Virus record (IMG/VR): IMGVR_UViG_3300021979_000003
Span: 1-64,000 of that record
DNA from: a virus
Taxonomy: Duplodnaviria; Caudoviricetes
Reading direction: 5' to 3' (one strand)
Length of the DNA: 64,000 nucleotides
Shown here: positions 8,049 through 62,357 of the stretch, one piece after another
How positions within the stretch are numbered: position 1 is the first letter of the stretch
Layout of the letters: each line of letters opens with the position of its first letter
The notes under the pieces: generated by a model
The model's database searches: none
Seen by the model: only the letters and a program-made list of their open reading frames with translations
What the model was told of the DNA's origin: nothing
Translations under genes and position numbers: made by a program

Positions 8049-8846
8049 TTATGCACCCTTCATGTTATCTCCTAGTAACCCTTCTCTAGCCATACGTTTT
8101 CTAATACGCTTCTTCCAACGTTCTTTTGCCTCGTATGATAACCTTTTAAACGTTTGGCTTAAACTTGCGTTTTTTGAAAGCATTTCTTCGAAAGTTAGTT
8201 CGTTCCATATATCTGAAAATTCCTTTTTAAGTTGCTTTATGTTGTGAATCTGTGCTTCTATCTCTATGTGAGTTTCAAATGGATCGCCCTGTAGTGTCTT
8301 TTTAGTAAAAGTTCCTTGACTTAATGTTTTTGTAATATGTCTATTATGCATTATATCATCGTAATAGTGTGCTAATTCGTGATGTATCGATGCCTTGACT
8401 TTATGGCTCTTAAATTCATTTATAAATTCACCAACCCTATCATCGGATATCATGTCTTTTGCAAGACTTTCGATAGAATCATATCGATGTGCGTATTGTA
8501 CTAAAATGTCATATGCATCACTATTGATGTTTAGAAATATTCTTGCTGGATGTGTACCAGTTGAGGGACTGTAGGCGTTCCCTCTGGATGAATCAAAAAC
8601 ATGTATTTTCACAGGCTCCATTTCATTTGCTTGAATGAGTTCTTTAGATTGCACCACGCCGTTTTTGATCAACCCATTCATAGAGAACGTCCCTGAAGAA
8701 AATTGTTCCATCAATAAATTTGTTTTACGAATATTCATATCTTGAATATTTTCGATTACTTCTTTAAAGAAAAAATCATATATACGATCCACGTCATCGT
8801 CAATCTCTAATAGCTTTTCTTGTAAAATAATATCACTTATTCTCAT
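8049..8846 (-). CDS. late, probably virion-packaged protein with HExxH zinc-peptidase-like motif
   Basis: N-terminus MRISDIILQE; HHELAHYYD; ATAAATA at 8872-8878. Confidence 0.75.
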   Translation of the reverse strand: MRISDIILQEKLLEIDDDVDRIYDFFFKEVIENIQDMNIRKTNLLMEQFSSGTFSMNGLIKNGVVQSKELIQANEMEPVKIHVFDSSRGNAYSPSTGTHPARIFLNINSDAYDILVQYAHRYDSIESLAKDMISDDRVGEFINEFKSHKVKASIHHELAHYYDDIMHNRHITKTLSQGTFTKKTLQGDPFETHIEIEAQIHNIKQLKKEFSDIWNELTFEEMLSKNASLSQTFKRLSYEAKERWKKRIRKRMAREGLLGDNMKGA

Positions 8847-9058
8847 ATATTATGTCCTTAAAATACTATATTATTTATCCCAGAGAATATACAGATTTTG
8901 ATGGTAGAGGGGGTTGACATCAGTGAACAATCATGGTTTAATATACTTGTTTTAGGCATAGGCTGCCGCACCAAACTCCTTGGTGTATTTAACGAAGGGT
9001 CTGTTGCCGTAGACCCTTCGTTACTTTTCGAATAAAATTCTTTAATATAGGGGAGATC

Positions 9059-9313
9059 ATGGAACCTGTTGAAATAAAATTGATAGTTAATGATATTGAG
9101 TATGCAGTGACCATTAACCATATAGGTGAAATCATTGAAAATCCTGATGGTTCTGGTGATCTACCAATTGAGTATAGCAGTGTACCCGAATGTCCAGAGA
9201 AAGACAACGAAGCCATGCACGACGCGCTTACTGAATTTGTGACAATTGCTATTAAAAATGCCATTGAGGAAGCCAAGCTCAAAGAAGCACTGAAAGATAA
9301 GGACGATACATAA
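9059..9313 (+). CDS. acidic hypothetical protein
   Basis: GGGAG RBS. Confidence 0.7.
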   Translation: MEPVEIKLIVNDIEYAVTINHIGEIIENPDGSGDLPIEYSSVPECPEKDNEAMHDALTEFVTIAIKNAIEEAKLKEALKDKDDT

Positions 9314-9819
9314 TGTTTACAACTCAAAAAATTCCAGCACGAGTCGGGATGGTAAGTCTTGTTGGAATCATGATCAAAGATTATCCGGTAGGGTTCGGAA
9401 ACTACTTCAGTTTTTCTAATGGCCTACGTAGTATTAACATGTGGGCGGAAAATCTTTCACACGCCGCCCCATTGTACCTTGAAGACGGTTTAATTGAAGT
9501 TGATATATGGGAAGAAGGCAACGGCAAATGGGCGGTTGTAGTGGACCAGAGACTACCAGAAGGCTATACGTTTGACAATCCATGTTTCACTGGTTGTCGT
9601 CCACCTTCTAGAGAAATGCTTGTTAAAATGGGAGCTTATTACCGTTGGGATCAAAATGATGAGTACCGCAAGCACACTGACCCTGAAAATTGGTATGAGG
9701 AACGTGGATGGACATATCGTAATGGCATCATTAGCAAATCAACCAATACTCCATCTAGGAAACTTAAAGGGAAATGGACAATTCAAAGTTCTGATGATAT
9801 TGATGGTACGACACTATGA
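9313..9819 (+). CDS. hypothetical protein
   Basis: Stop/start overlap with neighbours. Confidence 0.75.
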   Translation: MFTTQKIPARVGMVSLVGIMIKDYPVGFGNYFSFSNGLRSINMWAENLSHAAPLYLEDGLIEVDIWEEGNGKWAVVVDQRLPEGYTFDNPCFTGCRPPSREMLVKMGAYYRWDQNDEYRKHTDPENWYEERGWTYRNGIISKSTNTPSRKLKGKWTIQSSDDIDGTTL

Positions 9820-10055
9820 ATGAGGATCATAAAATGACAATTCAAGAATCTGCTGATTTAATGAAAAGAATGTCTAAGCTATTGAAAGAGACATATTGTG
9901 ACCTTATGATTTTTGATAGCACTTATCAAATTACTGATATTGATAAGGAAGAATCGTATAATTTTAAAAGCCCTGAAAAAGCACTACAGTATCTAGAAAA
10001 CAAAAAAGAATATATTGAAAAACAATTTATGCTGATTAATGAACATTCTTCTTGA
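9816..10055 (+). CDS. hypothetical protein
   Basis: ATGA overlap, 79 aa. Confidence 0.65.
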   Translation: MNEDHKMTIQESADLMKRMSKLLKETYCDLMIFDSTYQITDIDKEESYNFKSPEKALQYLENKKEYIEKQFMLINEHSS

Positions 10056-10084
10056 CAAAGTATAAATAACATGTAGAATGAAGT

Positions 10085-10196
10085 TAAGTAGAGCTAATTA
10101 AGATCATCCTTCTATTAAACATACTATTGGCTGAGTGAAACGATCTTTAAACTTCTCTACGCCCTATTTCAAAAGACCGCATTAGCGGTCTTTTTT
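10085..10196 (+). ncRNA. candidate small RNA (long hairpin plus terminator)
   Basis: TTGACA-16-TAGAAT promoter (10052-10079); GTAGAG/CTCTAC and TTAAGATC/GATCTTTAA helices; no ORF; next gene has its own promoter (10206-10234). Confidence 0.55.
10171..10196 (+). terminator. intrinsic terminator
   Basis: AAAAGACCGC-ATTA-GCGGTCTTTTTT. Confidence 0.9.
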
Positions 10197-10258
10197 ATTT
10201 GTCTATTGTATTTCATAACACAACCTGTTAGAATGTTTTTAAATGGTAGGAGATTGAC

Positions 10259-10462
10259 ATGGTTAAACGTGATACTAGTCCCGAAACTGCAAAAGAACAT
10301 GCAATTCATGATGTAGTTAGTGATGCGGAATTCTGCGTTCTACACTCTCCTGAGTTCTACAAAGACAAATACAATCGAATCTGTGATGATCAAGACCTTT
10401 CCGACGATTTACGACAAGCCTATATGGAAGGAATTGATTTGGGGTTTGATGAAGCACTATAA
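10259..10462 (+). CDS. small acidic hypothetical protein
   Basis: AGGAG RBS. Confidence 0.75.
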   Translation: MVKRDTSPETAKEHAIHDVVSDAEFCVLHSPEFYKDKYNRICDDQDLSDDLRQAYMEGIDLGFDEAL

Positions 10463-10482
10463 CTTTAAACGAGGATAATAGA

Positions 10483-11106
10483 ATGCGATACGTATATACT
10501 GCTGACCGTCTCAAGGACATGCTGTCTTATTACAAAGACACTCTTGAAGATATTCGCAAAAGCCTAGCTGTTGATAAAGGCGATATTGATTGTGAAGAAA
10601 TTTTCAATACCGTAAAGGATATGGTCAAAAAGTTAGAAGACCAAGCACGATATGAATATGAATACGCCCTTGAGAATACTTCTGTACCTTTCTGGAAGAA
10701 AGCGGAAGATGTTGTACCAAAACCTGCTATCTGTATTGATAGTATTATTAAGTATGTTGAAGAAAATGGTCTAGAAATTTCTGGCGCATTTCCCTATGCA
10801 GTAAGTCAGTATGAAGAAAGCATTTTTATTGATTCATCTTTTAAAATCACATCATCTGGAAATAAACATACTATCTTTCCAATTGACTCTGAATTTGAAT
10901 CAAGATCGTTTATCGTTTATCATCCAGAATCAAACACGCAACAACTACAAAAAGTTAATCAGTTGATTCATCAAATCCATCGCTATTTCGAGAAAGTTCT
11001 TGATGAAAGTATCACGCCAGACAAGTATGATCTTAATCCTGACGAACAACATGTTTTAGATATTACTGCAAAATATATCAGAGAACATAACGACAAAGAA
11101 CAATGA
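10483..11106 (+). CDS. hypothetical protein
   Basis: GAGGA RBS, 207 aa. Confidence 0.75.
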   Translation: MRYVYTADRLKDMLSYYKDTLEDIRKSLAVDKGDIDCEEIFNTVKDMVKKLEDQARYEYEYALENTSVPFWKKAEDVVPKPAICIDSIIKYVEENGLEISGAFPYAVSQYEESIFIDSSFKITSSGNKHTIFPIDSEFESRSFIVYHPESNTQQLQKVNQLIHQIHRYFEKVLDESITPDKYDLNPDEQHVLDITAKYIREHNDKEQ

Positions 11107-11498
11107 GATTTTATTCAATCCGGTCTTCAAAGATATATGAGTTTTTGATGGAGTGTGAAGATTTGGGTATTCCTTGGAATTTCATGGATACCCTTTCTGA
11201 ATGTACAAATTCTGATGCAGTTATTGAAAAACTGAACGATGGTTATGGCGATCAGTTCTTCAGTGAATTGAAAAAAATTGCAGGAAATATAAGTTATCAC
11301 TACACTGATATTCATGCATACAAAGCAACGTTCTTTTCTGAGACTATTATAAGAAGAGTGGTTGTATTCGATATCGATACAAAAGATATTAACTTACTTA
11401 AGCTGTCCAAGCCCAAGACATATAGTAAGCTGTGTGATATAAAATTTTTCGAATATAGAGTTGAAGAAGATGACGACGAAGAGATTCACGCTGATTAA
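11103..11498 (+). CDS. KLxYP-motif paralogue family member
   Basis: RRVVVFDIDTKDINLLKLSKPKTY. Confidence 0.7.
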   Translation: MRFYSIRSSKIYEFLMECEDLGIPWNFMDTLSECTNSDAVIEKLNDGYGDQFFSELKKIAGNISYHYTDIHAYKATFFSETIIRRVVVFDIDTKDINLLKLSKPKTYSKLCDIKFFEYRVEEDDDEEIHAD

Positions 11499-11835
11499 GA
11501 AGCTAGACTATCATACCATCATGAAGTTCTTAGATGCTGTAGATGCACCAGAGATAGTATCAAGAATGATTGAACTTAATGGTATTGATGTTCTGGATAT
11601 ATGGTTTGAGCGAACAGACTACCATCAACAGATTGTTGATTGTATCGCCAAAACTATGCGAATTGATGAGTATGACAGAATTGAATTTTTACCTTGTGGT
11701 ACAACATCGTTTGCTGATGAGAAAGGTATTATGTTAGTCATTCTTGTTTCAAGTGAACATTACAATCCAAATTACCTGAAGATTAAAAATAGAAACCTCT
11801 ATAATTTTATAGAGGCTTTTGGAAGATGGCGATAA
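11461..11835 (+). CDS. KLxYP-motif paralogue family member (divergent; start uncertain)
   Basis: IMLVILVSSEHYNPNYLKIKNRNLYNFI. Confidence 0.6.
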   Translation: MKKMTTKRFTLIKKLDYHTIMKFLDAVDAPEIVSRMIELNGIDVLDIWFERTDYHQQIVDCIAKTMRIDEYDRIEFLPCGTTSFADEKGIMLVILVSSEHYNPNYLKIKNRNLYNFIEAFGRWR

Positions 11836-12690
11836 TTATTTGTTTTGAGCGTACCAGTCTCTGAATTCACGAGAACTTACGTTCTTAACAATGTCTCTCT
11901 TAGTTACAAACTTTTTGGCTTCACCTTTATCACCTTCAATATAATTGTTAATGGCTTTAGCATCATATTGTATTTCCAAGGTGTTTTTTATGTAACCATA
12001 CATCTTATGTGCAGGTGTTGGTTTATCGCCGGGAACACGTGCTTGGTTTTTAACCATACCAATCATGTCATTTAAAACTTCTTTATAGATATCTGAACCT
12101 TTTAATTCTTCAACTTGAGATTTAGAAAGTTTAAACTGCTTTTCCATTTGTGGTCGATATTTACTTTCCTTTTCCTTACGTTCTTGTTCTTTCTTTTTGA
12201 TAATCGCACTGTTAACTTCTTTCTTAATGTAAGGCAGTTCTTCGAACGATCCCATAGCAGATTTATATAACGCTTCTGCTATTTCTTCTGCACTGTACTT
12301 AGGATGATATAGATCAACCCATTTGTTTATAATCGCATAAACAGTACCTGCCTGATCCAACTCTTCATGTGTCACACCACGAAGCTCTAAATCTTGCTTA
12401 GGTTCAGGCTTAGGTTCTTCTTTAGGTGGCTCTGTGACACTCTGTGCGGACTTTTGTGTCTTACCCTTCTGGGACTTCAGGTAATTGAAGAATTCACCGG
12501 GAGACGCTTTCTTAACTGCCTCCTGCTCTTCACCTTCTAATTCATTCGCCAAAGCTTTTCTTACACTGTAAAACTTATGTGATGCATTGTTGAACTCACC
12601 AGTGGTTTTACGAAACTTATCTAAAAGCTTTTGTAAAAGTTGTTCGTCGGTTTCAGTAATAATGTTTTCAACCAAGTCTAAAATCTTCAT
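11836..12690 (-). CDS. probable virion-packaged protein, N-terminal tag family
   Basis: MKILDLVENIITE; EPPKEEPKPEPK linker. Confidence 0.75.
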   Translation of the reverse strand: MKILDLVENIITETDEQLLQKLLDKFRKTTGEFNNASHKFYSVRKALANELEGEEQEAVKKASPGEFFNYLKSQKGKTQKSAQSVTEPPKEEPKPEPKQDLELRGVTHEELDQAGTVYAIINKWVDLYHPKYSAEEIAEALYKSAMGSFEELPYIKKEVNSAIIKKKEQERKEKESKYRPQMEKQFKLSKSQVEELKGSDIYKEVLNDMIGMVKNQARVPGDKPTPAHKMYGYIKNTLEIQYDAKAINNYIEGDKGEAKKFVTKRDIVKNVSSREFRDWYAQNK

Positions 12691-12698
12691 AACAATCC

Positions 12699-12956
12699 TT
12701 AAAATTCTTTTTTATATGGGCGGTAAGTTGCTCGAATCATATTGACTGATTCACTGCGTTCCATTTCAAGCGGCTTTCCAGTATTCATATCATAATACGA
12801 AAAATAAACCCTACTATGCTCAACACGGTTTATTTTTATTTTCACTTCACTATCGTCTTTATAAACCCAAGTTTCACCTTCCTGTGGTTTACGTCCAGCA
12901 AGACCTACTGTTAATGATGATAGTTCCGCTTCTGACATTAAGTCGTATATATTCAT
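12699..12956 (-). CDS. small late protein, N-terminal tag family
   Basis: MNIYDLMSE (ATG 12956, GGAG RBS); ATAAATA on minus strand at 12978-12984. Confidence 0.7.
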   Translation of the reverse strand: MNIYDLMSEAELSSLTVGLAGRKPQEGETWVYKDDSEVKIKINRVEHSRVYFSYYDMNTGKPLEMERSESVNMIRATYRPYKKEF

Positions 12957-12970
12957 AATTCTCTCCATTA

Positions 12971-12984
12971 ATAAATATATTTAT
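12971..12984. promoter_or_regulatory. bidirectional T4-like late promoter
   Basis: Perfect palindrome ATAAATATATTTAT between divergent genes; identical 14-mer at 54683-54696. Confidence 0.7.
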
Positions 12985-13005
12985 GATTATAAAAAAGGAT
13001 TACTT

Positions 13006-13575
13006 ATGAAAATTAATGAACTGTTTTTAGAAAGTGTAAGAATACCTGTAAATCAAAAGTTCGACTTTGGTGGTATTCATTATGATAATGAAAATGGAAT
13101 GGGTGCTGTACCTTTCAACAGCAATGTACTTTATGTCGGTTTCGCTGCTACTATGAGCGCTGAAGATTTTATCAGGCTGGCGGCAGAAGCTGATAGAAGT
13201 GAAGATGCTAAGAAATTTGCTGATATGATTATTGATGAGGATGCTACAATTGCTTGTCCCTTTTTACAAATAGAAGTTGAAGAAGATGAGAACGCTTCTC
13301 CAAACAACCCACAAGGAATTCGTGTACGTGGTCATGAAGGTAGAGGTAGAGCCGCAGCAATTAAAATGCTAGCAGAAGGTTATAGAAAAGAAGATCAAAA
13401 AGAACCAGTGAGCGGCGATATTATTGTACACTTTTTCCTATCTATGGGTTTACGCTCTAGGCATTTAAAAGAAGGGTTTTTTGAATACTTACAAAACAAT
13501 CCTATAATGAACGAAGGTGGGAATCCTACTGAAGTTCATATCAAAGAAATATTCCACGATCCAAATTGGAGATAA
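13006..13575 (+). CDS. late protein, N-terminal tag family; possible ParB/Srx-like domain
   Basis: MKINELFLES; P.l.i...VRGHEGRGRAAAIKML resembles the ParB-N G.hR..A motif. Confidence 0.65.
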   Translation: MKINELFLESVRIPVNQKFDFGGIHYDNENGMGAVPFNSNVLYVGFAATMSAEDFIRLAAEADRSEDAKKFADMIIDEDATIACPFLQIEVEEDENASPNNPQGIRVRGHEGRGRAAAIKMLAEGYRKEDQKEPVSGDIIVHFFLSMGLRSRHLKEGFFEYLQNNPIMNEGGNPTEVHIKEIFHDPNWR

Positions 13576-13580
13576 GGGAC

Positions 13581-14612
13581 TTATTTAGTCCCTTTCTTTT
13601 TTATATAATATTTCAATAGTTTTAGAAGTTCGTCATCATCCTCTGACCAATCACCAACACCTAAAACCGCATATTCACCTTCAGGTAACATGATTTCGGT
13701 TTTATCTTTTATTTCATCTAAGTCTTCAGTAAACTCAATACTATCCACATACAGTTGGGCATTCTTAAATACCCATTGAGCTTTATAGTTGCCTAAGTAT
13801 TCAAAAAACATTTCAGTAAGAAGCATTAATTCTTCTTCGAAAGAATCATATTCTTTACCTTCTATATCAGAAATTTTATCCATACTATATGCCATCGACA
13901 TTACATTAAACATTTCACGGAAACCTTTCTTCAATACTTCAGGCGTAATAACTTTTTCATAATCTCTTAATTCTTCTATTTCACCCGATGTAAATACGCG
14001 AATAAAAATAGTATCAATATAATTATGCATATGTTTCTTAACATATGTAGAAAACTTTGGCTTTAAAAATCCACCAAAATGTCTATGAATTCTATCAGTA
14101 ACTTCTTCTGTTTCTCTTAACTCAAAAAACAATTCAATACGTTCTGATAATCCTTCTTTGTATTCTTTAAAGTTGAATAACTTAGGACTGGTAAACATAT
14201 CATCTACTATAGTACTATAGTAGAAAAGGTAATCTTCTTTCAATGGAATAACAATCGAAGGATTGCCATATTCACTTGCTAGCGATTCACTTTTTGAAGC
14301 AAACATCATAGCTCTTACACTTACTGCCAACTCTTTTTGAGAAACTTCGTTTATTGTATTATGTATAACAAGTTGAGTATCCATAGGACGCTCACGATAC
14401 ATTATATGGTTAACTTCACCTTCTTTTAGTTTACCACCGTGGTATAAAACTGGCATATGATCTTTTATGTTTTCATAATAAGCTTCAATATCATAAGGGT
14501 CTACTTTATTAAACCATGGTTTCCAATGCATATGGAAAAACTTACTTTTAATGATACTGTCATAAAGAGTAGTAATATCTTCTTTATCTTCAAATAAATC
14601 AATTATTTTCAT
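13581..14612 (-). CDS. late protein, N-terminal tag family; ADP-ribosyltransferase-like
   Basis: MKIIDLFED; LYHG...MFAS...ASEYG; clear paralogue of 18214..19161. Confidence 0.65.
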   Translation of the reverse strand: MKIIDLFEDKEDITTLYDSIIKSKFFHMHWKPWFNKVDPYDIEAYYENIKDHMPVLYHGGKLKEGEVNHIMYRERPMDTQLVIHNTINEVSQKELAVSVRAMMFASKSESLASEYGNPSIVIPLKEDYLFYYSTIVDDMFTSPKLFNFKEYKEGLSERIELFFELRETEEVTDRIHRHFGGFLKPKFSTYVKKHMHNYIDTIFIRVFTSGEIEELRDYEKVITPEVLKKGFREMFNVMSMAYSMDKISDIEGKEYDSFEEELMLLTEMFFEYLGNYKAQWVFKNAQLYVDSIEFTEDLDEIKDKTEIMLPEGEYAVLGVGDWSEDDDELLKLLKYYIKKKGTK

Positions 14613-15031
14613 TCTATTTCCTTATGTGAGCTTCGTATAACTTGTGCATTGTTATCTTTAGCCCATTTAATTAATGGTGATATATTACCCAATTCATTAG
14701 TTTTTATTGTTCTTAGATGAGTATCCCCAACCACAATTGCTATTACATTATAATCTTTATTAATCACAGAATTTAAATGTTCTATCATCGAGGATTCACG
14801 ACTTTTAAACTGTGTGATTAAATCATCAGTATCTTTAACTTCATCTTCTAAAGGAATAACATCTGTATTGGGAAGAACTTTGTTATAGAATTCTTTATCT
14901 TCCCAATATAATTCGTGAAGAATAACATCAGGATTTAATTTAATTATTTGTTCTCTGATGTTTTCAACTTCATCACGAACAGTGTGATTCTCTCCATAAA
15001 AAACAATTTTTTTGTTATGTTTTATTTTCAT
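14609..15031 (-). CDS. TraB/TIKI/ChaN/EreA-superfamily protein
   Basis: FYGENH, LHE, RESSM, VVGDTH motif order. Confidence 0.65.
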   Translation of the reverse strand: MKIKHNKKIVFYGENHTVRDEVENIREQIIKLNPDVILHELYWEDKEFYNKVLPNTDVIPLEDEVKDTDDLITQFKSRESSMIEHLNSVINKDYNVIAIVVGDTHLRTIKTNELGNISPLIKWAKDNNAQVIRSSHKEIE

Positions 15032-15570
15032 TCCATTATTTCCTTCTTAGGATTAAGTAAAAACCACTCACCCATACTTTCACTTAATCCATTACTCTCA
15101 TGATTGTGTATCATTTCATTAATATAAAACACGCTTCCCAACTCTACGCCCTGCACTTTACCGACTGTTTGATAAATGATATCACCAAAGTAACTTGCAA
15201 CCTTCACACTGGTTGCCCATGACTGTATAGGCATGATGTGTTTGTCATCTTGAGTTTCAGTTTCTACCCCACGGTAAAATGTTTTATCCATAGGCTCAAT
15301 TCTTTTCATAATAGATACTAATGCTTTTCCTGCCTTAACGGATAAGGGTGTGTTATCATAACGATACTGTAATATTTCTTCAGTAAGCCAATCGTGTGAA
15401 GCTATTAATATTTCTGCATCATACCTATCAATTGTTGATGCATTACGTATCCTATCAAAACCTGATAGGCGTTTTATGAAATTTCTATCGTACCAATCAG
15501 GAGGGCTTGCTAGGGAATTAATGGGATCGTCTGGATTCCATTTTGATTCTATTAAGTCTAAAATTTTCAC
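15028..15570 (-). CDS. late protein, N-terminal tag family; R-S-E type ADP-ribosyltransferase-like
   Basis: MKILDLIES (GTG start); FYRG, SWATS, distal GEW; ATAAATA at 15593-15599. Confidence 0.65.
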   Translation of the reverse strand: MKILDLIESKWNPDDPINSLASPPDWYDRNFIKRLSGFDRIRNASTIDRYDAEILIASHDWLTEEILQYRYDNTPLSVKAGKALVSIMKRIEPMDKTFYRGVETETQDDKHIMPIQSWATSVKVASYFGDIIYQTVGKVQGVELGSVFYINEMIHNHESNGLSESMGEWFLLNPKKEIME

Positions 15571-15640
15571 AGTTATATCCTTTCTTTTTAATTATTTATC
15601 TTCCTTGTGAAAGCACTTTCTTTATGGTATCATCCCCATT

Positions 15641-17836: not shown

Positions 17837-18230
17837 AACTGAAATAGGTTTCTTTTGTGATAAACATACCTATAAAATAGAAACAAATGTTGTGTTTACA
17901 AAAGAGTTTCTTAAAGAGCATATCAATAACCTTCCTATCAGAGGGTATGATAAGCAAATGCTATTAAATGATATGATAACTACGAATCCATACGGTGGAG
18001 CGACACATACACCAATAGCTGATGTCATTAGAGAATTTATAGGTGATTATCTAGAATCTTATGATTTAGAATCCATCCATATAGATAATAAAGATTTAAA
18101 ATATATCTTTAGAGATATGGCTCAAAAGAGAAAATGTATACGGGTGAGTTTCCTTGTCTCGACCAAACATTTTAGATACCTAGCACTTAAGTACCCAGAA
18201 TTTCATCAACAGCTTAGATCAACTCAATAA
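17820..18230 (+). CDS. KLxYP-motif paralogue family member
   Basis: RKCIRVSFLVSTKHFRYLALKYPE. Confidence 0.75.
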   Translation: MIELYETEIGFFCDKHTYKIETNVVFTKEFLKEHINNLPIRGYDKQMLLNDMITTNPYGGATHTPIADVIREFIGDYLESYDLESIHIDNKDLKYIFRDMAQKRKCIRVSFLVSTKHFRYLALKYPEFHQQLRSTQ

Positions 18231-19161
18231 GCTCTAGGAATACATTAACAATAAATTCGGATTCCATATGGATTGCGTATGCATTTTTAAAAAATATCAT
18301 ACCTTCATTTTTATTCAATTCTAATGGGTCTTTAGTGTATTCTATTCTCTCTACATATCTTTCTATATCTGACATATAGTTATTAACGACAATACCAAGT
18401 GTTCGTTTAATACTATTTAAAACCCTATCAAACTTGTCATTATTTAATATAACTTCTTTTAAATGCTCTTCACTTTCTTCTATGACTCTTTGTTTAAAGG
18501 CTTTAAAAGTTTTAAACTGTTCGTCACCAAGTTCACCATCTACATGTCCAAAGAAGTCATTTGCACTACCTTCAATATTATTAGAGAACGTTCTATTTTC
18601 TTCCATTTCACCAATTAAGTGTCCAAGCATATAGCTGGTGAAGTGTGCACCAAATTCTCCGTGATTTGCAGTGCTGTATTCATCGGTGAAGTCCATTACC
18701 CCTTTTGAATAGAAAATCTTGTATTCACCTAATGGAAAAATCAAATAGGGTGATCCATACGATTTTGCACTTCTAACTTGTGCAGTAACAAACATACCGC
18801 TGCGAACATTAACGCCATACTTTTTCTTTGCTAAATGATTTACATAATTATGAATAAAAATATTAGTATCTTTCGGTTCATCCCTTTCTTGGAATTCTAA
18901 ATATTTTAACTCTCCCAAGTTTGAAGATGGAGAACCATGATACAGGAACCCATTATATATAAGCTTTCTTACAACATCACCTTTGCCTTCCACTTTTGCA
19001 TTATAATTTGAAACATCCGCATTTATCTTGTAAACTTTATCTTTTATCTGTTCAAAGTAAGGAGACTCATATATATTCTTTGCGACAATTTCAGGCGTAA
19101 ATGTACTCTTATCTTCATTTACTTGTCTATAAATTTCTGGAAAGATATCTTCTATATTCAT
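18214..19161 (-). CDS. late protein, N-terminal tag family; ADP-ribosyltransferase-like
   Basis: MNIEDIFPE; FLYHGS...GMFVT...AKSYG; TATAAATA at 19183-19190. Confidence 0.65.
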   Translation of the reverse strand: MNIEDIFPEIYRQVNEDKSTFTPEIVAKNIYESPYFEQIKDKVYKINADVSNYNAKVEGKGDVVRKLIYNGFLYHGSPSSNLGELKYLEFQERDEPKDTNIFIHNYVNHLAKKKYGVNVRSGMFVTAQVRSAKSYGSPYLIFPLGEYKIFYSKGVMDFTDEYSTANHGEFGAHFTSYMLGHLIGEMEENRTFSNNIEGSANDFFGHVDGELGDEQFKTFKAFKQRVIEESEEHLKEVILNNDKFDRVLNSIKRTLGIVVNNYMSDIERYVERIEYTKDPLELNKNEGMIFFKNAYAIHMESEFIVNVFLELIELI

Positions 19162-19244
19162 GGTTAATCCTATTGTTTATTATATTTATAAATATAGTAA
19201 AAGGATAAAGATTATGCAGAAGAGAACAACTTAGACTTACCTTC

Positions 19245-21579: not shown

Positions 21580-21693
21580 TTACACCTCCCGAAAGCAGTT
21601 AAATGGTAATATAATGGGGTAATCATAGCATATAAATTATTGATCCACAAGTTTAAATACAAGTGGACATTCAAATTAATTAGGAGGATGAAT

Positions 21694-23565
21694 ATGCCAA
21701 CCATTAATAACTATGGTTTAGGTGGTGTTGGTGACAATATCCAGTTCGGTAAAAAAGGTACTAGAATAAAAAGCTTGAACGGTCAGTTCGAAGCTCGTGA
21801 TCTTAACGATTCTACGTATGTACCTATTGCTGCTGGTGATCCAGTCAACGACAATGACCTAGTAACCAAATCATATCTCGAAACAGTTCAACAAGCCGGT
21901 GACACTCTACGTACACCAGAAGATGGCGACTTGACTGATAACGGTGCGATTACTACATGGGAAGTTGGTACAACTACTTATACTAACGCACTCGATAATC
22001 TTAACGAGATTCTAGGACGTTTGGTGCCTGCACAGCCACCAGCGCTTTCAAGTTTCTCTATTTCACCAACTGGCGGTAACAATGAAATACTAGCTAGTGG
22101 TGCTACTGATAACACTGGCGGTAATATTCCTGCTGCTGGTACAACAGTATACACTATCTATGATGATAGTATTGTAACGACACAAGCTAACGGTGGCTCT
22201 GGTGCTACTGGTGGTGACGTTGAAGGCAATAACGGTAACCTATTCACCGATGGTGCAAGCGGTGACCTAACTGCATTCATCAACGGTGTGCAAGATGGTA
22301 CTATTACACTTACTGAAGCTTCTGAAGTTGGTAGCTACACTTCACTACAGGTTGTAAGTGATGTTGATTACCCTGCTTCTACTCCCGGCTTCTATAAAGC
22401 TATTAAAGCACGTATTAACAAGTCCAGCGGTGTTCCTGTTGGTTATAACAATGCACAGCTAACTCACTCTGATTCAGGTTCTACTAATACTATCGCTTGG
22501 GTACATGATGATGTTGCTGCTGCACCAACTATTTCTGGAACAGGATATAGTCTAGGAACTTCCACTACAGGGAAATACAGTTCTGGTATTAAACACTTAA
22601 CTAATGGTGACACAATCAACGTTGATGGTACTGTTTCTAACCTAACCGGTCAAACATACATCACATCTAACGTTCTAACTTATACCACTAGTCCAAGTGT
22701 TGGTACTCTAGCTATGGATGCTACTGAACTAGGTACTGGTCTAACATTCCCATTGGATGCGAACCTAGCACCACAGACTATCTCTGGTAAAAGTCTAACT
22801 ATTGGTACTACAGCACGTTTCGTACAGACAAACATGTTTGTTAGTGCTTACAACCCACGTGGTTCTGATACCAACAACTCTGTAGCTGGTGATAACATTC
22901 TTGTTTACACTACTGCATTGGAAGGTGGTAATAAGCCTCACGAAGTACAGGTTAACGGTTCCTCTGCTGATGCATACCGTCATTACCTTGGTTCTGGTTT
23001 TACTGGTGATACACCATCTGGTTCTATCACTGCACCTACTGCAAGTAATTGGGACTCAAGCCAACTTCTAAATGCTGCTGGTTACGAGCATGAAGCTGTT
23101 GTAGTTGCTGGTGCTATTAAGCACGATACTACTAACTATACTACTGGTCACATTCCTACCACTACTGGTGCTGATTATAGCACAAAAGATGCTTCTCAGT
23201 ATGTTACTTATGTATTCAACCAAGCGACACTATCCAGCATTAGTTTATCTATCTCTGGTAACTATTCTGGTCTATGGGTTTCTCTACCGGGAATCTCTGA
23301 TGACGCTGGTCAATCACCAAACGCTCTAGGTGGTAACTGGTGGGATGCTTTCGCGCTTTATAACGGCTCTGGCGTTCCCGGTCGTACTGGTGATACCAAT
23401 GCTGGTTGTGCTGTAGGTAGTGCTGCTTCTGGAAGTTCTGGAACAGTAGATATCACATTTGGTACTGCATCTAGTACTAACGCAACAAACAATGCTGTAA
23501 TCGTTCGAATTAAGTTAACTGCTGGACAGAGTATTTCTGCAATCAGCATAAGCAATACACCATAA
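21694..23565 (+). CDS. large Gly/Ser/Thr-rich virion structural protein (tail/baseplate-associated)
   Basis: AGGAGG RBS, ATG 21694; beta-rich composition; N-terminal domain paralogous to 57309..57830. Confidence 0.75.
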   Translation: MPTINNYGLGGVGDNIQFGKKGTRIKSLNGQFEARDLNDSTYVPIAAGDPVNDNDLVTKSYLETVQQAGDTLRTPEDGDLTDNGAITTWEVGTTTYTNALDNLNEILGRLVPAQPPALSSFSISPTGGNNEILASGATDNTGGNIPAAGTTVYTIYDDSIVTTQANGGSGATGGDVEGNNGNLFTDGASGDLTAFINGVQDGTITLTEASEVGSYTSLQVVSDVDYPASTPGFYKAIKARINKSSGVPVGYNNAQLTHSDSGSTNTIAWVHDDVAAAPTISGTGYSLGTSTTGKYSSGIKHLTNGDTINVDGTVSNLTGQTYITSNVLTYTTSPSVGTLAMDATELGTGLTFPLDANLAPQTISGKSLTIGTTARFVQTNMFVSAYNPRGSDTNNSVAGDNILVYTTALEGGNKPHEVQVNGSSADAYRHYLGSGFTGDTPSGSITAPTASNWDSSQLLNAAGYEHEAVVVAGAIKHDTTNYTTGHIPTTTGADYSTKDASQYVTYVFNQATLSSISLSISGNYSGLWVSLPGISDDAGQSPNALGGNWWDAFALYNGSGVPGRTGDTNAGCAVGSAASGSSGTVDITFGTASSTNATNNAVIVRIKLTAGQSISAISISNTP

Positions 23566-54667: not shown

Positions 54668-54712
54668 ATCATTTCCTCACATATAAATATATTTATTAAG
54701 GAGTATACATTT

Positions 54713-55060
54713 ATGAAAGCTGGTGACATTATACCACAGAAAGAAAAGATGGGTAAAATAATATCTCATATTGTTAAAAACATAGACAAGGATGGGAAAA
54801 CTGTCTTTACTGGTCAGGAATTGAAAGAGAAGTATGACTATGACTTTATTCATAGTGGGCTTATAGTTACAGTCGATAAGAACATTGATCCATCGCCTGA
54901 CAGAGAATATAAGGTAGATGAGTTCTGGGGTAATGAAATTAGAATTGATATCGCATCAAAGGGTCTATCCAACTCCCAGATCAAAGAGATATTGAAAAAA
55001 GCTTTTGATGAGTATGTAGAAGTTATAAATCGAAAAAGTCAGAAATACGAACAGTTATAA
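54713..55060 (+). CDS. late protein (MKAGDII N-terminus)
   Basis: TATAAATA at 54682-54689, AAGGAG RBS, terminator hairpin AATCCCC/GGGGATT after stop. Confidence 0.75.
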   Translation: MKAGDIIPQKEKMGKIISHIVKNIDKDGKTVFTGQELKEKYDYDFIHSGLIVTVDKNIDPSPDREYKVDEFWGNEIRIDIASKGLSNSQIKEILKKAFDEYVEVINRKSQKYEQL

Positions 55061-55404: not shown

Positions 55405-55417
55405 TGCATTTCTCCTA

Positions 55418-55789: not shown

Positions 55790-55845
55790 ATAATTCTCCT
55801 AAAATATTGGTATAAATATTACCATAGTATGCAAAGGGAGTCAAC

Positions 55846-56846: not shown

Positions 56847-56848
56847 AA

Positions 56849-57316
56849 TTATTCAATTGGAACAAGTGAAATGAAAATTGTTTCATTTGTTCCCCACCAT
56901 CCTCTATTTCTATTATTGTTTGTAGCGTAAATCTCAATGAACTCATTCACTAAGTAAGGTGGTGTATTACCAGCAATACTACCTATAGTTGTATCCGAAT
57001 GAGCAAAAACGTTTTTTAGAACACCACCAGCCAAATCACTATCAAAAACAACAATGTCATCAATTATGATCTTAGTAATTGAAACACCGTCATCCGAAGT
57101 TTCTATACCGCCGAAATTAAAAACACCCGTTCCTTTCGCAATAAGAACAGGACTGTACGTCTCATTTGGTATTGTAACCTCTAAAACACCTGCGTTTTGG
57201 TCATCATTATTGTAAATATTAAGAGCATTCTCTGGAAGTCTGGGTACTGTGAGTATTCTTCTCAATAGGCTAGATTTTATGTTTTGTTTGTTTCCTCTAA
57301 AATTAATATCAGGCAT
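56849..57316 (-). CDS. probable tail-fibre/structural protein
   Basis: Between structural gene and DUF4376. Confidence 0.6.
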   Translation of the reverse strand: MPDINFRGNKQNIKSSLLRRILTVPRLPENALNIYNNDDQNAGVLEVTIPNETYSPVLIAKGTGVFNFGGIETSDDGVSITKIIIDDIVVFDSDLAGGVLKNVFAHSDTTIGSIAGNTPPYLVNEFIEIYATNNNRNRGWWGTNETIFISLVPIE

Positions 57317-57830
57317 TGATCAATAACTCCCAATCACCACTCCCAGAATATACAATAGTTATCTCAGTCATCGTGTCTAGTGTAAAAGACGATGATGATC
57401 CAGCGGTAGTAATTATCGCTTCAGTTACACTATCGTCTACGTTTAACGTTGATGATGTTATTGCATTAGAACTTCTAATTGTCAACGACTCGCCAACCGA
57501 AACATTACTTGTGGCAGGCAACGTTAATGTCTGGTTACTTGTCAAATAATACTTGACTCCCGTACTTAATGTGATAGATGTTGAAATAACATTATATGAA
57601 CCAACACTAGATACTGCTTTTAATGATTCCGATAATTGCCCTTTGGTCAATGCTTCATCATTATTAACAGCATCACCTATTTGAATTGGTGCAAGTGTGG
57701 TCTTATCACTTTCATAAAAAGTGAACTTACTATTAACGAAGTCATATTTGATCATGCCTCCGCGCTTGCCTAGCTCAAGGTTACTATTGACACTAGACAG
57801 GTTGTAGCTTTTCAATGTTAGAGTACTCAT
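57309..57830 (-). CDS. virion structural protein
   Basis: N-terminal YNLSSVNSNLELGKRG...D.V..D.L.TK paralogous to 21694 protein. Confidence 0.75.
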   Translation of the reverse strand: MSTLTLKSYNLSSVNSNLELGKRGGMIKYDFVNSKFTFYESDKTTLAPIQIGDAVNNDEALTKGQLSESLKAVSSVGSYNVISTSITLSTGVKYYLTSNQTLTLPATSNVSVGESLTIRSSNAITSSTLNVDDSVTEAIITTAGSSSSFTLDTMTEITIVYSGSGDWELLINA

Positions 57831-57948
57831 TTAATTCCCTTAATTTTAATTATTATTCTTGCATAATATTTAGGCTATCACAATGTAACGATTTGTCAAC
57901 GGCAATAAATACTTTAAAGCGCTATCTATTTTAAGGAGAAACATCGTC

Positions 57949-58440: not shown

Positions 58441-58449
58441 GGAACACAC

Positions 58450-59649
58450 ATGAGCTATATATTTGATAATCAAATAACATTTGAAAGAAATGAACAACTT
58501 GACGCATTTGGAAGACTAAGAATATCAAGTCTACAAACATACTTTGATTCCCCACTAAAACATCACGAAGAAATATACATTTGGGATACCCTAACTATTG
58601 GCAGTGGAACATGGAATTATTCTTTTTCGCAAAATCTTTTAGACGCTTCCGTGACAGGAAATGGGGATAGAGTATTACGTCAGACAAAAGAATATTTTCA
58701 GCTACAAAATGGTAAGTCACATTTTGGTTTTATTGGTGTTGTATTCGGAACTACTACAACTGGTGTCACAAAAAACACAGGTGTCTATGACGATGATAAC
58801 GGATTTATGGTTAGGCAAAGTGGTGATGGTTCTATGAGCTTCGTTATAAGGTCTAGTGCATCAGGAAGCGTACAGGAGTCTGTAATACCACAGGCTTCAT
58901 GGAATATAGATACATTGGATGGCAATGGTCCTAGTGGGATAAATGTGGACTTTGAGAAGCTTCAAATCCTAGCATTTGATATGTCTTATAGTGGGAATGG
59001 TTCTGTGAGATTTGGTGTTATGGTTGAAAACAAAATGATCATTGCTCATCAATCATCCGCTTTCAATCTATATGCAGTAAATAACTTCACCACACCGAGT
59101 CTACCTATTAGCTATGAAATTGAATCAACAAGTGGGGCCTCAACTCTTAAACAACAATCATGTTGTATTATGATAGAAGGAAACTACGAAGAGCGCGGTG
59201 TACAACGCAGTGTGAACACTGGAACAACAGCTAAGAATGTAGGTTCAACGTTAACACCAGTTTTAAGTATAAAACTAAAATCACAATACAGAAAAGGCGT
59301 GATACATCCAGAATCCTTCAACATACTACAGACATCAAATAATAAAACACTTTATTATGCAATATATATGTACACATCATTAACTGGCGCAAGCTGGTCA
59401 GAGTCCCAATCCGGCACAAATTGTATTGCTGAAGTAGACACATCAGCAACTGCGTTTTCTGGCGGAATATTAGTTGATTCTGGATATCTACCAGCAAAAG
59501 CTACTACAACGATTTCTGAAAAATTTAACAATATACTAAGTTTGGCTGGTGATATAGCAGGAAATACAGATATTCTAACAATTGCAATTGCGGGTGTAGG
59601 TGGATCAGTACCATGTTTCGCATCATTAAATTATTATGAAGTTTATTAA
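58450..59649 (+). CDS. virion structural protein
   Basis: DAFGRLRIS...F...GVYDDDNGF...LPISYEI pattern typical of large myovirus structural proteins. Confidence 0.75.
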   Translation: MSYIFDNQITFERNEQLDAFGRLRISSLQTYFDSPLKHHEEIYIWDTLTIGSGTWNYSFSQNLLDASVTGNGDRVLRQTKEYFQLQNGKSHFGFIGVVFGTTTTGVTKNTGVYDDDNGFMVRQSGDGSMSFVIRSSASGSVQESVIPQASWNIDTLDGNGPSGINVDFEKLQILAFDMSYSGNGSVRFGVMVENKMIIAHQSSAFNLYAVNNFTTPSLPISYEIESTSGASTLKQQSCCIMIEGNYEERGVQRSVNTGTTAKNVGSTLTPVLSIKLKSQYRKGVIHPESFNILQTSNNKTLYYAIYMYTSLTGASWSESQSGTNCIAEVDTSATAFSGGILVDSGYLPAKATTTISEKFNNILSLAGDIAGNTDILTIAIAGVGGSVPCFASLNYYEVY

Positions 59650-59660
59650 GGTAAAATAGT

Positions 59661-60467
59661 ATGGCTATAAAAAGAAAAATTACAGCACAACCAATCCCAG
59701 ATGTAGACGCATCACCTGACTATAAAGATCAGGATAGAGTATTTGATGCACTAGCGCCAGAAGGCGTAGGTTGGAAGTTGGAAAACAGCTTTCGAGGTGA
59801 ATATAACATATTCCATGTATGGAAGAAAGGCGATATAAATTACGACGATGGTATGGAAAACTATTGGACAAGTAAAGGTGATGACTTAATAAATGGAACG
59901 GTTGGTGACGGTCAGAAGTTTTCTATATCTATGGGAACTGGTGAAACTACTAAGAGTGTTGAAGGGTCTTTCTTACCTTATGAATCTTTTATCTACGGCG
60001 GTACTATTTTCTGGGAAGGCGATAGTAATAAGAAAACTGTAACTTTGGATGTTGTTGCAACTGCTGCATCGCTAACAACAGGTGATAGTGTTATTGTGGA
60101 GTCTGGGACTAACAAGGTGGTTCCAAAATCAGATAACTCAGGGACAAATGCACTTGATGGTATACCGACATTGGTTGATAATAAAACCTCAACTGGTTGG
60201 TGGGACTTCATCGACAATGAATTGGTTCCTAACTTTAACATGGAAGGTAGCTTTGATATATACACAGTGGATAAAACTGTTGCTAGACTTTTAAACGATT
60301 TCGATTTAATGCCTAAAGCATCGGGTGAGAGTTGTATAAAGGCCGATAATGCTTGGAAAGTATTTCCCGGTTATAAATTTAAACTTATTGCCAACAATAT
60401 AGAAGATGGTAATTGGGATGTTAGTTTAGTATTCCATATGATCAAAAGAAAAACAGTGAGTTATTAA
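59661..60467 (+). CDS. probable structural protein
   Basis: Co-transcribed with structural genes. Confidence 0.65.
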   Translation: MAIKRKITAQPIPDVDASPDYKDQDRVFDALAPEGVGWKLENSFRGEYNIFHVWKKGDINYDDGMENYWTSKGDDLINGTVGDGQKFSISMGTGETTKSVEGSFLPYESFIYGGTIFWEGDSNKKTVTLDVVATAASLTTGDSVIVESGTNKVVPKSDNSGTNALDGIPTLVDNKTSTGWWDFIDNELVPNFNMEGSFDIYTVDKTVARLLNDFDLMPKASGESCIKADNAWKVFPGYKFKLIANNIEDGNWDVSLVFHMIKRKTVSY

Positions 60468-60469
60468 GC

Positions 60470-60958
60470 TCACTGTTTTTGAAATATCACAAGGTTTACA
60501 CCTTTTGCTTTAATATTTTCCACAAATTCAAACTTTTTCATTTCGAGATATCTTAGCATTTTCGGATGCTCCAAGAATTTCTCTAGTTTTTTAAGATCAG
60601 CGTCAGTCACTGCTACGAACTTGAGTTGATCAATTCTGGTATAGAACTTGCTAATAACAACTTCCAACATCTTCTCCAACTCATCTTTATGGCTATAAGC
60701 CTTGTTTACGTTGACAGGATTCATTAACTGCTCAATAGAACCTACTACGATACTGAACACATCCGGGTTATTGGTAGTACTAAAAAGAATTCTACCATCA
60801 GTATAAAGTAAAACAACTAGATAAAGATTATTTCCGACTTCTGACGCTATCGCAAATGTTTTCTTTTCGGGAAGGTATTTTACTTTACCGTCATTGAATT
60901 CTTCGTTTGATCCATATGAAGCTTCATATAAGTCTGACTCTCGCATTATTAGCTCCAA
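60470..60958 (-). CDS. hypothetical protein (N-terminal MRESDLYE)
   Basis: 162-aa ORF in leftward operon. Confidence 0.7.
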   Translation of the reverse strand: MELIMRESDLYEASYGSNEEFNDGKVKYLPEKKTFAIASEVGNNLYLVVLLYTDGRILFSTTNNPDVFSIVVGSIEQLMNPVNVNKAYSHKDELEKMLEVVISKFYTRIDQLKFVAVTDADLKKLEKFLEHPKMLRYLEMKKFEFVENIKAKGVNLVIFQKQ

Positions 60959-61431
60959 TCGTCATCTATTGCTTGTGAATATTCCCCACTAAAGGACATC
61001 ATACCAATATCCTTTAGCCTCTCACTATCAGGCAATTCACCTTCGTAGTCATAGCTTAAGGTTACATGTGGCGAATAATCATCATATGAATGTATAAACC
61101 CGCTTGCTAAGAGTTCATCATGACGCGCTTGTAAATCTTTTGACTCAAGCTTTACCACCAGACAATTCTTTTCTGGACCAAACAGTGCAAACCCAACAGG
61201 CTTTGCTTCGTAAGTAAGATCACTCGGTGGAATAAGAGGATTACCTTTATCTTCTGAATACATTAATGTTACATGTATTTTCTCATCTTCAATAGGATTC
61301 TTAAGCTTTAAGCTCTTAATTAAGTCTTTAATTTTTTCCATTCCATCTTCGTCAGGAACAACACCAAAATATGTTCCATTTTTAAAAGACTTATAGTAAT
61401 ACTCAAATTTACTTTTATCAAAATAACTCAT
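60949..61431 (-). CDS. acb1: 2H phosphoesterase, T4 57B / anti-CBASS Acb1 homologue
   Basis: NPIEDEKIHVTLMYS and HSYDDYSPHVTLSY match T4 57B NPVPREKIHSTICYS and HDFDDYTPHITLSY. Confidence 0.9.
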   Translation of the reverse strand: MSYFDKSKFEYYYKSFKNGTYFGVVPDEDGMEKIKDLIKSLKLKNPIEDEKIHVTLMYSEDKGNPLIPPSDLTYEAKPVGFALFGPEKNCLVVKLESKDLQARHDELLASGFIHSYDDYSPHVTLSYDYEGELPDSERLKDIGMMSFSGEYSQAIDDDWS

Positions 61432-62357
61432 CGTTTGCCCTCAATATACTGTTTAAATATTGAGTCATGTTCTTCCTCAATATCATCACTCCAATCGAAA
61501 TTATCATCATCGTCTCTATTTCTCTCCAAGCTTTCCATGATTGCGTTGTTATGATGGTTGTACATACTTTCAACCATAGTTTCTACTTGAGAATTAAATA
61601 GGATGTCGTTTATATCTTCATCTAAATTTATTTCATTTGATTCTTTAAACTTTGCAGGGTTTCTTTTAAAGAAGTCTGCAATACCAACTGCGGCAGCAAA
61701 ACCAATAATGCTACCCACCAAATAGTTATAATCATCAGCCACTTTTCTCTTAAGCTTCTTAGGTAGGTAAGAATATACTTTTTTGGGCTTGGCGTTTGGT
61801 GCGTCAGGGTTATCTTTTTGATACTCTTTATACAAAGAGTTCATAGACTTGTACATCTTGATATACTTACCACGATACTCTTCAAATATTTCCTTTTCGG
61901 CTTCAGGGCTTAATCCAAAAGATGATATTAGCTCTTCAAAAAACTTGGAACTGTAAAGCATACCATTCTTTTCATACTTCTGAATCATTAGATTATAATC
62001 AAAGTACATCTTATCTTTAAGCTTCTTAGTCATTACCTTTACTTGCTTCTTCATTTGTTTAGACATAGAAGCATTGTTACGTGTGGTGACCTTACGCATA
62101 GCTTTCTTATAAGCATCTTCCGTTCCAGATTTAAGATCACCCATAAGGTTCTTTGCACCTTTGAAAAGAGAGCCTAGACTATCTTTCAATCCTTCGTCTA
62201 GGTTCTCTTTGTCCATGTACATAAACATGAAAGTCATTCCATTTTGATCTTCAAAAATCATGTCACATGGTATTTTATTTAATTCTGAAACAAGTTCACT
62301 TTCATTTTCCTTTGATGCTTCAGATATAACGTTTCTTAGTTTCTTAATGTCAGCCAT
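61428..62357 (-). CDS. probable head core/internal protein
   Basis: Repeated (I/L/V/M)xE sites (ISE, VSE, LDE, MVES, IMES) and acidic C-terminus. Confidence 0.55.
   Translation of the reverse strand: MADIKKLRNVISEASKENESELVSELNKIPCDMIFEDQNGMTFMFMYMDKENLDEGLKDSLGSLFKGAKNLMGDLKSGTEDAYKKAMRKVTTRNNASMSKQMKKQVKVMTKKLKDKMYFDYNLMIQKYEKNGMLYSSKFFEELISSFGLSPEAEKEIFEEYRGKYIKMYKSMNSLYKEYQKDNPDAPNAKPKKVYSYLPKKLKRKVADDYNYLVGSIIGFAAAVGIADFFKRNPAKFKESNEINLDEDINDILFNSQVETMVESMYNHHNNAIMESLERNRDDDDNFDWSDDIEEEHDSIFKQYIEGKR

Follow-up and report, generated by a model that had tools for sequence, protein, structure and literature searches.

The 64,000-nucleotide stretch of DNA considered here (the window) is the start of a 239,090-bp contig of a giant, T4-related marine phage (IMG/VR record IMGVR_UViG_3300021979_000003), and it raises the question of why genes of at least eight sequence families should begin with nearly the same short peptide. 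An earlier note on this DNA had likened these N-termini to the capsid-targeting sequence (CTS) that internal proteins of T4 carry, and had read them as a portable tag that loads a varied effector cargo into the head for injection. This reading is supported by a gp21-type protease gene, late-promoter-like motifs ahead of most tagged genes, the number of tagged families, the [LI]-x-E ends of the tags and their likeness to the T4 gp24 propeptide; in our assessment, its strongest support is the presence of tagged proteins in virions of a relative, phage Atu_ph07. It is likely that the tag is a lineage-specific capsid-targeting propeptide, cleaved after its Glu by the prohead protease and loading a changeable, enzyme-like cargo. 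Since the principle is already established for T-even phages, the finding is an extension and not a new mechanism; what is new is the phage group and its cargo set, and the value lies in the cross-check with a virion proteome and in the exposure of a very large, unannotated cargo family, A3, with a probable fold like that of ADP-ribosyltransferases (ART).

Occurrence, sequence and promoters of the tag

The contig has a G+C content of 36% and an estimated completeness of about 54% (CheckV). Among named phages, Salicola phage SCTP-2 (440 kb) comes closest, with a capsid gene 77% identical at the DNA level, followed by Rak2-like and PA5oct-like giant phages. Close relatives are found in metagenomes, marine ones among them, on contigs as long as 460 kb. 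A megablast search of the 8-20 kb region against named phages gave no match. Our own gene calls over the entire contig, on which the counts below are based, comprise 293 genes and 74,100 residues.

The tag has the consensus M-[KRN]-I-x-[DE]-[LI]-x(1-3)-E, is 8-10 residues long and occupies the extreme N-terminus. All eight N-termini regarded as strong by the earlier note were found where it had placed them; the one at 15570 is written here as VKILDLIE, from a GTG start. The genome-wide pattern search that the note had proposed was run on all 293 genes, and ^M[KRN]I.[DE][LI] fits 12 of them, where 0.15-0.37 would be expected from position-specific N-terminal residue frequencies; among 5,000 column shuffles, the maximum was four. 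Eight of the 12 lie within the first 30 kb, and in every one a Glu follows one to three residues past the core. Inside proteins, the pattern occurs only once in the 74,100 residues. A position-weight scan added the looser candidates MRESDLYE, MKINEVVD, MKTEDIGTE, MKVLQLFE and, at the start of a 66-amino-acid (aa) gene product, MKLGDLTE.

The conserved residues of the tag are encoded by varied synonymous codons (ATA/ATT/ATC, GAT/GAC, TTA/TTG/CTG/CTA), which points to a constraint on the peptide and not on the RNA; a signal at the level of RNA or translation was rejected on this ground as the cause of the shared N-terminus. More broadly, the shared N-terminus might be a translation-initiation feature or a site recognised by another common partner, for example a chaperone or unfoldase, an enzyme that modifies the protein or a system that degrades it, in either case unrelated to packaging. 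AT-rich codons after the start codon are indeed common in such genomes, but the synonymous codons together with the fixed acidic and hydrophobic pattern speak against an RNA-level signal, no radical S-adenosylmethionine (SAM) gene was found in the contig, itself a fragment, and neither the capsid protein of the contig nor the other head-module and large structural proteins inspected carry the tag; all 13 tag-bearers of Atu_ph07 are virion proteins. We therefore regard a role unrelated to packaging as quite improbable.

The motif TATAAATA occurs 35 times in the contig and stands 20-47 nt upstream of the start codon in 23 genes, including three that match PHROG families annotated 'virion structural protein' as well as genes for fibre-like proteins. 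Hence, the phage appears to use T4-type late promoters, and it is from such motifs that late expression of the tagged genes is read. Co-occurrence of tag and late promoter, which the earlier note had suggested counting, was found: 7/12 tagged genes versus 32/281 others have ATAAATA at 15-35 nt upstream (Fisher p=2e-4), and three further tagged genes belong to operons headed by such a motif, raising the number to about 10 of 12. The note had placed most of the tagged genes directly behind ATAAATA-type motifs, which holds for six of the eight strong cases in the window, with NATAAATA 21-28 nt upstream; one of the remaining two has TATAAAAA and is located behind a tagged gene, and the other, 13581-14612, is inside an operon headed by GATAAATA. 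The note was also right that tagged genes are single genes or short units, frequently opposite in orientation to their neighbours.

Overlapping divergent copies of the motif were detected in two intergenic spacers, 12970-12985 and 28472-28485, and at both a single short spacer may drive late genes on the two strands. Late-promoter-like motifs take the form of overlapping palindromes, AATAAATATATTTATG, TATTTATATAAATA and TATAAATATATTTATT, at window positions 12970-12985, 28472-28485 and 54680-54697, respectively.

Virion association in a relative, proposed processing and relation to T4 head targeting

The Atu_ph07 version of the tag, M[KR]W.[QD]L.E, has 13 occurrences in that phage versus none in the control. 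Ten of the 13 tagged genes are adjacent (AUZ94865-74), and all ten match the A3 profile. The virion proteome of Atu_ph07 comprises 131 of 714 proteins (PMC6102473, Table S5), and each of the 13 tagged proteins was assigned to an entry of that table from its gene order and an exact match in molecular weight: gp53 to gp62 (87.07, 56.49, 29.65, 30.93, 30.16, 29.20, 31.19, 29.55, 29.96 and 29.61 kDa), gp381 (20.00 kDa), gp408 (30.60 kDa) and gp482 (31.68 kDa). Most of them were identified with 7-31 unique peptides; the tag and the paralogy passed without comment, and no N-terminal processing was reported (PMC6102473). Atu_ph07 resembles the phage studied here in that A3 members (gp53-62 and gp408) carry an 8-residue N-terminal tag ending in L-x-E and are seen in virions, but differs in the tag sequence, M[KR]W.QL.E. 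Our literature search turned up no account of the tag for the SCTP-2/Atu_ph07 group.

Two neighbours of tagged Atu_ph07 genes, gp407 and gp483 (L036:1-1029, L037:839-1723), are virion proteins too. An internal MKLINLLE lies 12 residues after the annotated start of gp407, which suggests that this start may be mis-annotated and that gp407 may bear a variant of the tag.

The contig encodes a gp21-type prohead protease (contig 127018-127665; Peptidase_S77, PF03420, 86.6 bits), which shares about 60% identity with thousands of T4-like proteases and has an invariant L7 and E9 near its own N-terminus, a parallel to LIE-9 of T4 gp21 (PMC9026906). A gp23-type major capsid protein is likewise encoded (PF07068, 264.5 bits), and no gp24 paralogue was found in the contig. 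A maturation site of the capsid protein was not recovered by BLASTP, as the alignment to T4 gp23 begins only past the T4 cleavage site. Between a putative portal gene and the protease gene lies the 66-aa gene mentioned above (contig 126143-126343, plus strand), which encodes a basic protein starting MKLGDLTE. The gene overlaps with the terminal part of the putative portal gene (766 aa) and occupies the same position as the T4 prohead-core gene 67, but its composition is unlike that of gp67.

In T4, the head proteins IPI-III, Alt and gp24 carry N-terminal propeptides of 10-19 residues that target them to the scaffolding core and are removed by gp21 at hydrophobic-x-Glu; in the targeting sequence of IPIII, targeting involves residues 4 and 7, whereas residues 8 and 10 are important in processing, and reviewers have earlier proposed the CTS as a general T4-like route for loading varied proteins (PMC9026906, PMC3012670, PMC5694885). 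The CTS of the internal proteins is attributed to Mullaney & Black 1996 in the reviews through which we cite that work (PMC9026906, PMC3012670). The internal-protein sequence MKTYQEFIAE, quoted by the earlier note, was confirmed twice in T4 (ipII and ipIII). Tag and CTS agree in being short N-terminal peptides on otherwise unrelated, non-essential-looking proteins, in ending with hydrophobic-x-Glu, in the spacing of hydrophobic residues at i and i+3 (Y4/F7 in T4, I3/L6 here), in the presence of a gp21-type protease and in the variability of the loci between relatives. They differ in that the sequence here is MKIxDLxE, often of 8-9 residues versus 10, in the number of bearers (at least 12 genes in half a genome versus three internal proteins in T4) and in the cargo, which is larger (85-343 aa) and enzyme-like here but small and basic in T4. 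Of the T4 sequences, the gp24 propeptide, MAKINELLRE, comes nearest and is close to MKINELFLE and MKINDILNE of the window, although gp24 is a shell protein and capsid-protein paralogue and not internal cargo. A more distant parallel is offered by the ejection proteins of phiKZ and SPN3US, whose propeptides are mostly longer than 100 residues and carry an A/S/G-x-E motif used by a gp21-related protease (PMC5694885); these proteins are also packaged in the head and processed after Glu, whereas the leaders described here are short and T4-like.

From this we infer the following route. The tagged proteins would be made at a late stage of infection, from genes that follow T4-type (N)ATAAATA promoters. 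The tag would be amphipathic, with hydrophobic residues at positions 3 and 6/7 and acidic ones at 5 and 8-10, and could bind the scaffolding core, so that the tagged protein would be enclosed while the prohead shell forms around it. The gp21-type protease would then cut after the Glu of [LI]-x-E, freeing the mature cargo inside the head, and this cargo would leave the head with the DNA and enter the host at infection, where it might exert enzymatic activities. The cargo set would be changeable and, in this phage, would include the A3 ART-like family in seven copies, a second ART-like protein, ParB-like and HExxH proteins, and several proteins of unknown function.

Several observations weigh against this route. 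The internal-protein sequence MKTYQEFIAE shows little residue-for-residue likeness to the tag, with only M-K, the spaced hydrophobics and the terminal Glu shared. [LI]xE with its Glu at residues 8-10 is found in 9/12 tagged genes versus 16/281 other genes, but this enrichment is partly circular, as the search pattern demands [LI] at position 6, and in 3/12 tags the P3 residue is M or F instead of L or I. Exact TATAAATA precedes only 2/12 tagged genes, and AT-rich spacers often contain the ATAAATA 7-mer. Only about 54% of the genome is represented by the contig. The proteomic evidence comes from Atu_ph07 homologues and not from this phage, the published table is without N-termini, and detection in virions does not prove a location inside the head. 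Moreover, since ten of the 13 Atu_ph07 genes are clustered paralogues, 13 of 13 does not represent independent events; the three scattered tagged genes were detected in virions as well.

These points leave room for a tag that directs proteins to the virion but stays uncleaved, or that docks them elsewhere, on the capsid surface, on whiskers or hairs, or on the tail. Atu_ph07 has hair-like appendages (PMC6102473) and many virion proteins of unknown function, its proteome gives virion association but neither location nor processing, and the three tags with a deviating P3 residue are compatible with a peptide that is not cut. Against this, the cargo looks enzymatic (ART-like, ParB-like, HExxH) and not fibrous, the tag has a protease motif at its end and is similar to the T4 gp24 propeptide, which is cleaved, it is predicted to be flexible and outside the fold of A3, and the gene at the position of T4 gene 67 starts with MKLGDLTE. 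We consider such an uncleaved or externally docked tag unlikely and favour the cleaved, capsid-targeting propeptide.

Cargo families and a candidate ADP-ribosyltransferase fold

The view of the earlier note that the domains downstream of the tag are largely unrelated needs partial revision. Three of the eight window proteins (13581-14612, 18214-19161 and 28511-29449) belong to one diverged family, A3, whereas the other five do not match its profile; BLASTP among the tagged proteins gave as sole link that of 13581-14612 with 18214-19161. A3 has seven members in the contig, the three in the window and contig 154228-155028, 231843-232571, 233305-234216 and 235717-236490, and its profile finds exactly the same seven genes with or without the tag columns.

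It could be argued from this that there is no portable tag and that the motif is merely an N-terminus conserved within a single large and diverged family of paralogues. A3 covers 5/12 strict-tag genes, or seven if variant starts are counted; among the best 150 of 3,954 A3 clusters nearly all start M[KR]xxx[YLI][LI]xE; and at least 11 of the 13 Atu_ph07 tags are on A3 proteins. However, seven strict-tag genes (8049, 11836, 12699, 13006, 15028, 92876 and 216440) gave no match to the A3 profile, and profile-profile comparison (hhalign) of the family of 15028-15570, termed A2, with A3 returned a probability of 1.5%, so that the two were handled as separate families. Together, these results place the tag on at least eight sequence families. 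In addition, SCTP-2, where A3 genes starting MKINDILKE stand in tandem, has about 17 tag matches versus two in controls, and about nine of them are outside A3. The single-family explanation thus appears highly improbable.

The tag also appears to be a separable element within families. Homologues of 8049-8846 share a core of their own, from ..EKL.[ND][VI]DDDVD onward, but their leaders vary by lineage (MRISDIILQE, MKISELFKGVFLTE, MKINEILNE, MKDYIKKLLKE and others), most with hydrophobic-x-Glu. In schizoT4 vibriophages, MITFNEHLVE forms the start of the homologue of this gene, and genes in its vicinity begin MKFSEYQ..E. Of eight further homologues of 15028-15570, seven have the tag at their start (MKIIDLIKE, MKINDIIKE, MNINDLICE and similar); in P0009 it sits after a probably mis-called start, and in P0008 the tag, still at the very N-terminus, is followed by an additional domain of about 100 residues. 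Gene content at the locus differs in two syntenic relatives, and some genes present only in one of them, L022, also begin MKINDLLE or MKIIELICE behind (T/G)ATAAATA. In the structure models, the tag is predicted to be flexible and to lie outside the fold: residues 1-10 of A3 have a mean predicted local distance difference test score (pLDDT) of 53, whereas every following block of ten residues, up to residue 180, has a mean of at least 89, and in the model of 15028-15570 residues 1-7 have a pLDDT below 50.

As a side observation, in the schizoT4 vibriophages PVA8 and F86 (L005:3607-5381, L007:3561-4412) adjacent genes start MKFSEYQRINE, MKFSEYQNELTE and MKFSEYQAQLDE. These leaders are close to T4 MKTYQEFIAE, and the genes adjoin the homologue of window 8049-8846.

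A3 comprises 3,954 clusters at 50% identity (E<=1e-3). Its profile matches 12 proteins in SCTP-2, 14 in Atu_ph07 and five in RsoM2USA and gave no match in T4 or in a schizoT4 vibriophage; XacN1 was absent among the homologues, and the RsoM2USA proteome, which covers ten gel bands only, contains no A3-family member. Neither Pfam nor PDB gave a sequence match to A3. The model of A3, made for 13581-14612 (pLDDT 91.8), consists of a beta-core with ART-like matches and a long helical insert (residues ~145-290). The best structural matches of the beta-core are weak (Arr, Z 5.7; diphtheria toxin, Z 5.0), as are those of an atlas search with the model (ART-PolyVal, template modelling (TM) score 0.50; Tse2 ART, TM 0.44); Foldseek against PDB returned nothing at E<=0.001, and a search of the AFDB clusters returned uncharacterised proteins only. 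Conserved residues of the family include an LYHG motif and the near-invariant H84, R100 and E306. We consider an ART-like fold of A3 fairly probable and treat it as a lead.

For the remaining cargo, sequence motifs provide leads only. In nine homologues of 15028-15570, FYRG, QSWATS and GEWLLL(N)P show no or almost no variation, motifs that resemble those of an R-S-E ADP-ribosyltransferase, and a language-model search gave DRAT as a lead (0.91). The structure model of this protein is poor (pLDDT 68 overall, below 50 at residues 100-136, the catalytic region), so that its atlas search, which returned unrelated folds at TM<=0.35, is meaningless. The product of 13006-13575 may be ParB_N/DUF6551-like, and that of 8049-8846, with its HELAH motif, may be LPD23/SprT-like, a sub-threshold match. 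Pfam gave no credible family for nine of ten candidates, even at E<=5, PHROGs matches of the candidates were to unknown-function families only, and PDB sequence searches with A1, 15028-15570 and 8049-8846 yielded nothing useful.

T4 Alt and the polyvalent proteins invite comparison. T4 Alt is a head-packaged ADP-ribosyltransferase that is cleaved at ITE-6 (PMC5694885). Alt is an ART-superfamily enzyme that travels in the head with a short propeptide in front of it and leaves together with the DNA, and A3 and 15028-15570 have ART-like leads; in contrast to Alt, with which no sequence homology was detectable, their assignment draws on weak structural matches (Z 5-5.7; TM 0.44-0.50), and A3 is multi-copy: this contig has seven copies and SCTP-2 has 12, while Atu_ph07 gave 14 profile matches. 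Among predicted injected effectors are the polyvalent proteins with ART-PolyVal domains (Iyer et al. 2017, PMC5512222; PF18760). ART domains would be common to both: the A3 model is near ART-PolyVal, and the 2645-aa A3 relative P0015 contains seven stretches that match the family profile, as in polyvalent proteins. The difference is that in the contig the putative effectors are encoded singly, one domain per gene, and every such gene has a tag and, in many cases, a late promoter to itself.

Little is known of which proteins giant phages bring into the cell along with their DNA, and the majority of the 131 Atu_ph07 virion proteins have no assigned function (PMC6102473). It is possible, and we propose it tentatively, that the tag makes the injected protein set of SCTP-2/Atu_ph07-type giant phages readable, and that the main cargo is a very large, undescribed, head-packaged ART-like family using nicotinamide adenine dinucleotide (at least 3,954 clusters, 7-14 copies per genome) to modify host targets or disarm defences. 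Checked against a published virion proteome, the tag allows candidate injected effectors of this phage group to be listed from sequence alone. It also singles out a very large unannotated enzyme-like family, A3, for biochemical work and provides a candidate tag for loading foreign proteins into giant-phage capsids, as the T4 targeting sequence serves in T4.

Feature coordinates, weaker cases and neighbouring genes

The tagged genes, the weaker cases and the associated promoter motifs are compiled in Table 1.

Table 1. Tagged genes and late-promoter-like motifs (window coordinates, unless marked as contig coordinates)
Position	Strand	Feature	N-terminus or motif	Remarks
8049..8846	-	Tagged late gene, 265 aa	MRISDIILQE (8817-8846)	HELAH motif
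8872..8879	-	Late-promoter-like motif	GATAAATA	Upstream of gene 8049-8846 (25 nt)
11836..12690	-	Tagged gene, 284 aa, Lys/Glu-rich	MKILDLVE (12667-12690)	Behind tagged gene 12699-12956
12699..12956	-	Tagged small gene, 85 aa	MNIYDLMSE (12930-12956)	
12970..12985		Overlapping divergent late-promoter-like palindrome	AATAAATATATTTATG	Would serve 13006-13575 (+) and 12699-12956 (-)
13006..13575	+	Tagged gene, 189 aa	MKINELFLE (13006-13032)	ParB_N/DUF6551-like lead
13581..14612	-	Tagged gene, 343 aa, A3 family	MKIIDLFE (14589-14612)	Candidate ART-like fold
14609..15031	-	Operon gene flanked by two tagged genes, 140 aa	MKIKHNKK	
15028..15570	-	Tagged gene, 180 aa	VKILDLIE (15547-15570)	GTG start
15593..15600	-	Late-promoter-like motif	GATAAATA	Heads the 15570-13581 operon
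18214..19161	-	Tagged gene, 315 aa, A3 family	MNIEDIFPE (19135-19161)	Exact TATAAATA at 19183-19190
28478..28485		Exact late-promoter motif for 28511-29449	TATAAATA	Overlaps divergent TATAAATA at 28472-28479
28511..29449	+	Tagged gene, 312 aa, divergent A3 member	MKINDILNE (28511-28537)	
32261..32815	-	Weak case	MAELNE	LNE at residues 4-6; CATAAATA at 32836-32843
54713..55060	+	Weak case, late gene	MKAGDIIPQKE	No [LI]xE ending; TATAAATA at 54682-54689
60470..60946	-	Weak case	MRESDLYE	LYE at residues 6-8; no late promoter of its own
92876..93217 (contig)		Tagged gene		
154228..155028 (contig)		Tagged gene		A3 family
216440..217066 (contig)		Tagged gene		
233305..234216 (contig)		Tagged gene		A3 family

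Orthologues of several tagged genes keep the tag. That of 11836-12690 in L022 retains it, those of 12699-12956 in L021 and L022 begin MNIYDLM, and that of 13006-13575 in L022 begins MMKINELILE. The operon member 14609-15031 is a different case: its orthologues (L021:1664-2095, L022:10540-10971) start MKIKDLNK and MRISDVDQ with no Glu following, and its own start may be a decayed, partial or variant tag.

The three cases that the earlier note had ranked as weaker stay weak. MAELNE and MRESDLYE do end in [LI]xE, whereas MKAGDII lacks the motif; the Met of MRESDLYE lies at 60946 and not at 60958, as had been given. The product of 32261-32815 is a SAM lyase family protein (PF23780, E=4e-12) whose start, MAELNE, resembles that of T4 Alt, MELITE. 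If packaged, it could destroy S-adenosylmethionine on entry.

Two further observations concern fibre-like proteins of the window. The gene at 2759-3760 (plus strand) encodes a 333-aa protein with collagen triple-helix repeats and a sub-threshold match to a YadA-like anchor, probably a fibre or whisker protein. The products of 21640-23565 (plus strand; 623 aa, starting MPTINNYGLGG) and 57309-57830 (minus strand; 173 aa) are 33% identical over their N-terminal ~70 residues, which suggests a common fibre-like N-terminal module.

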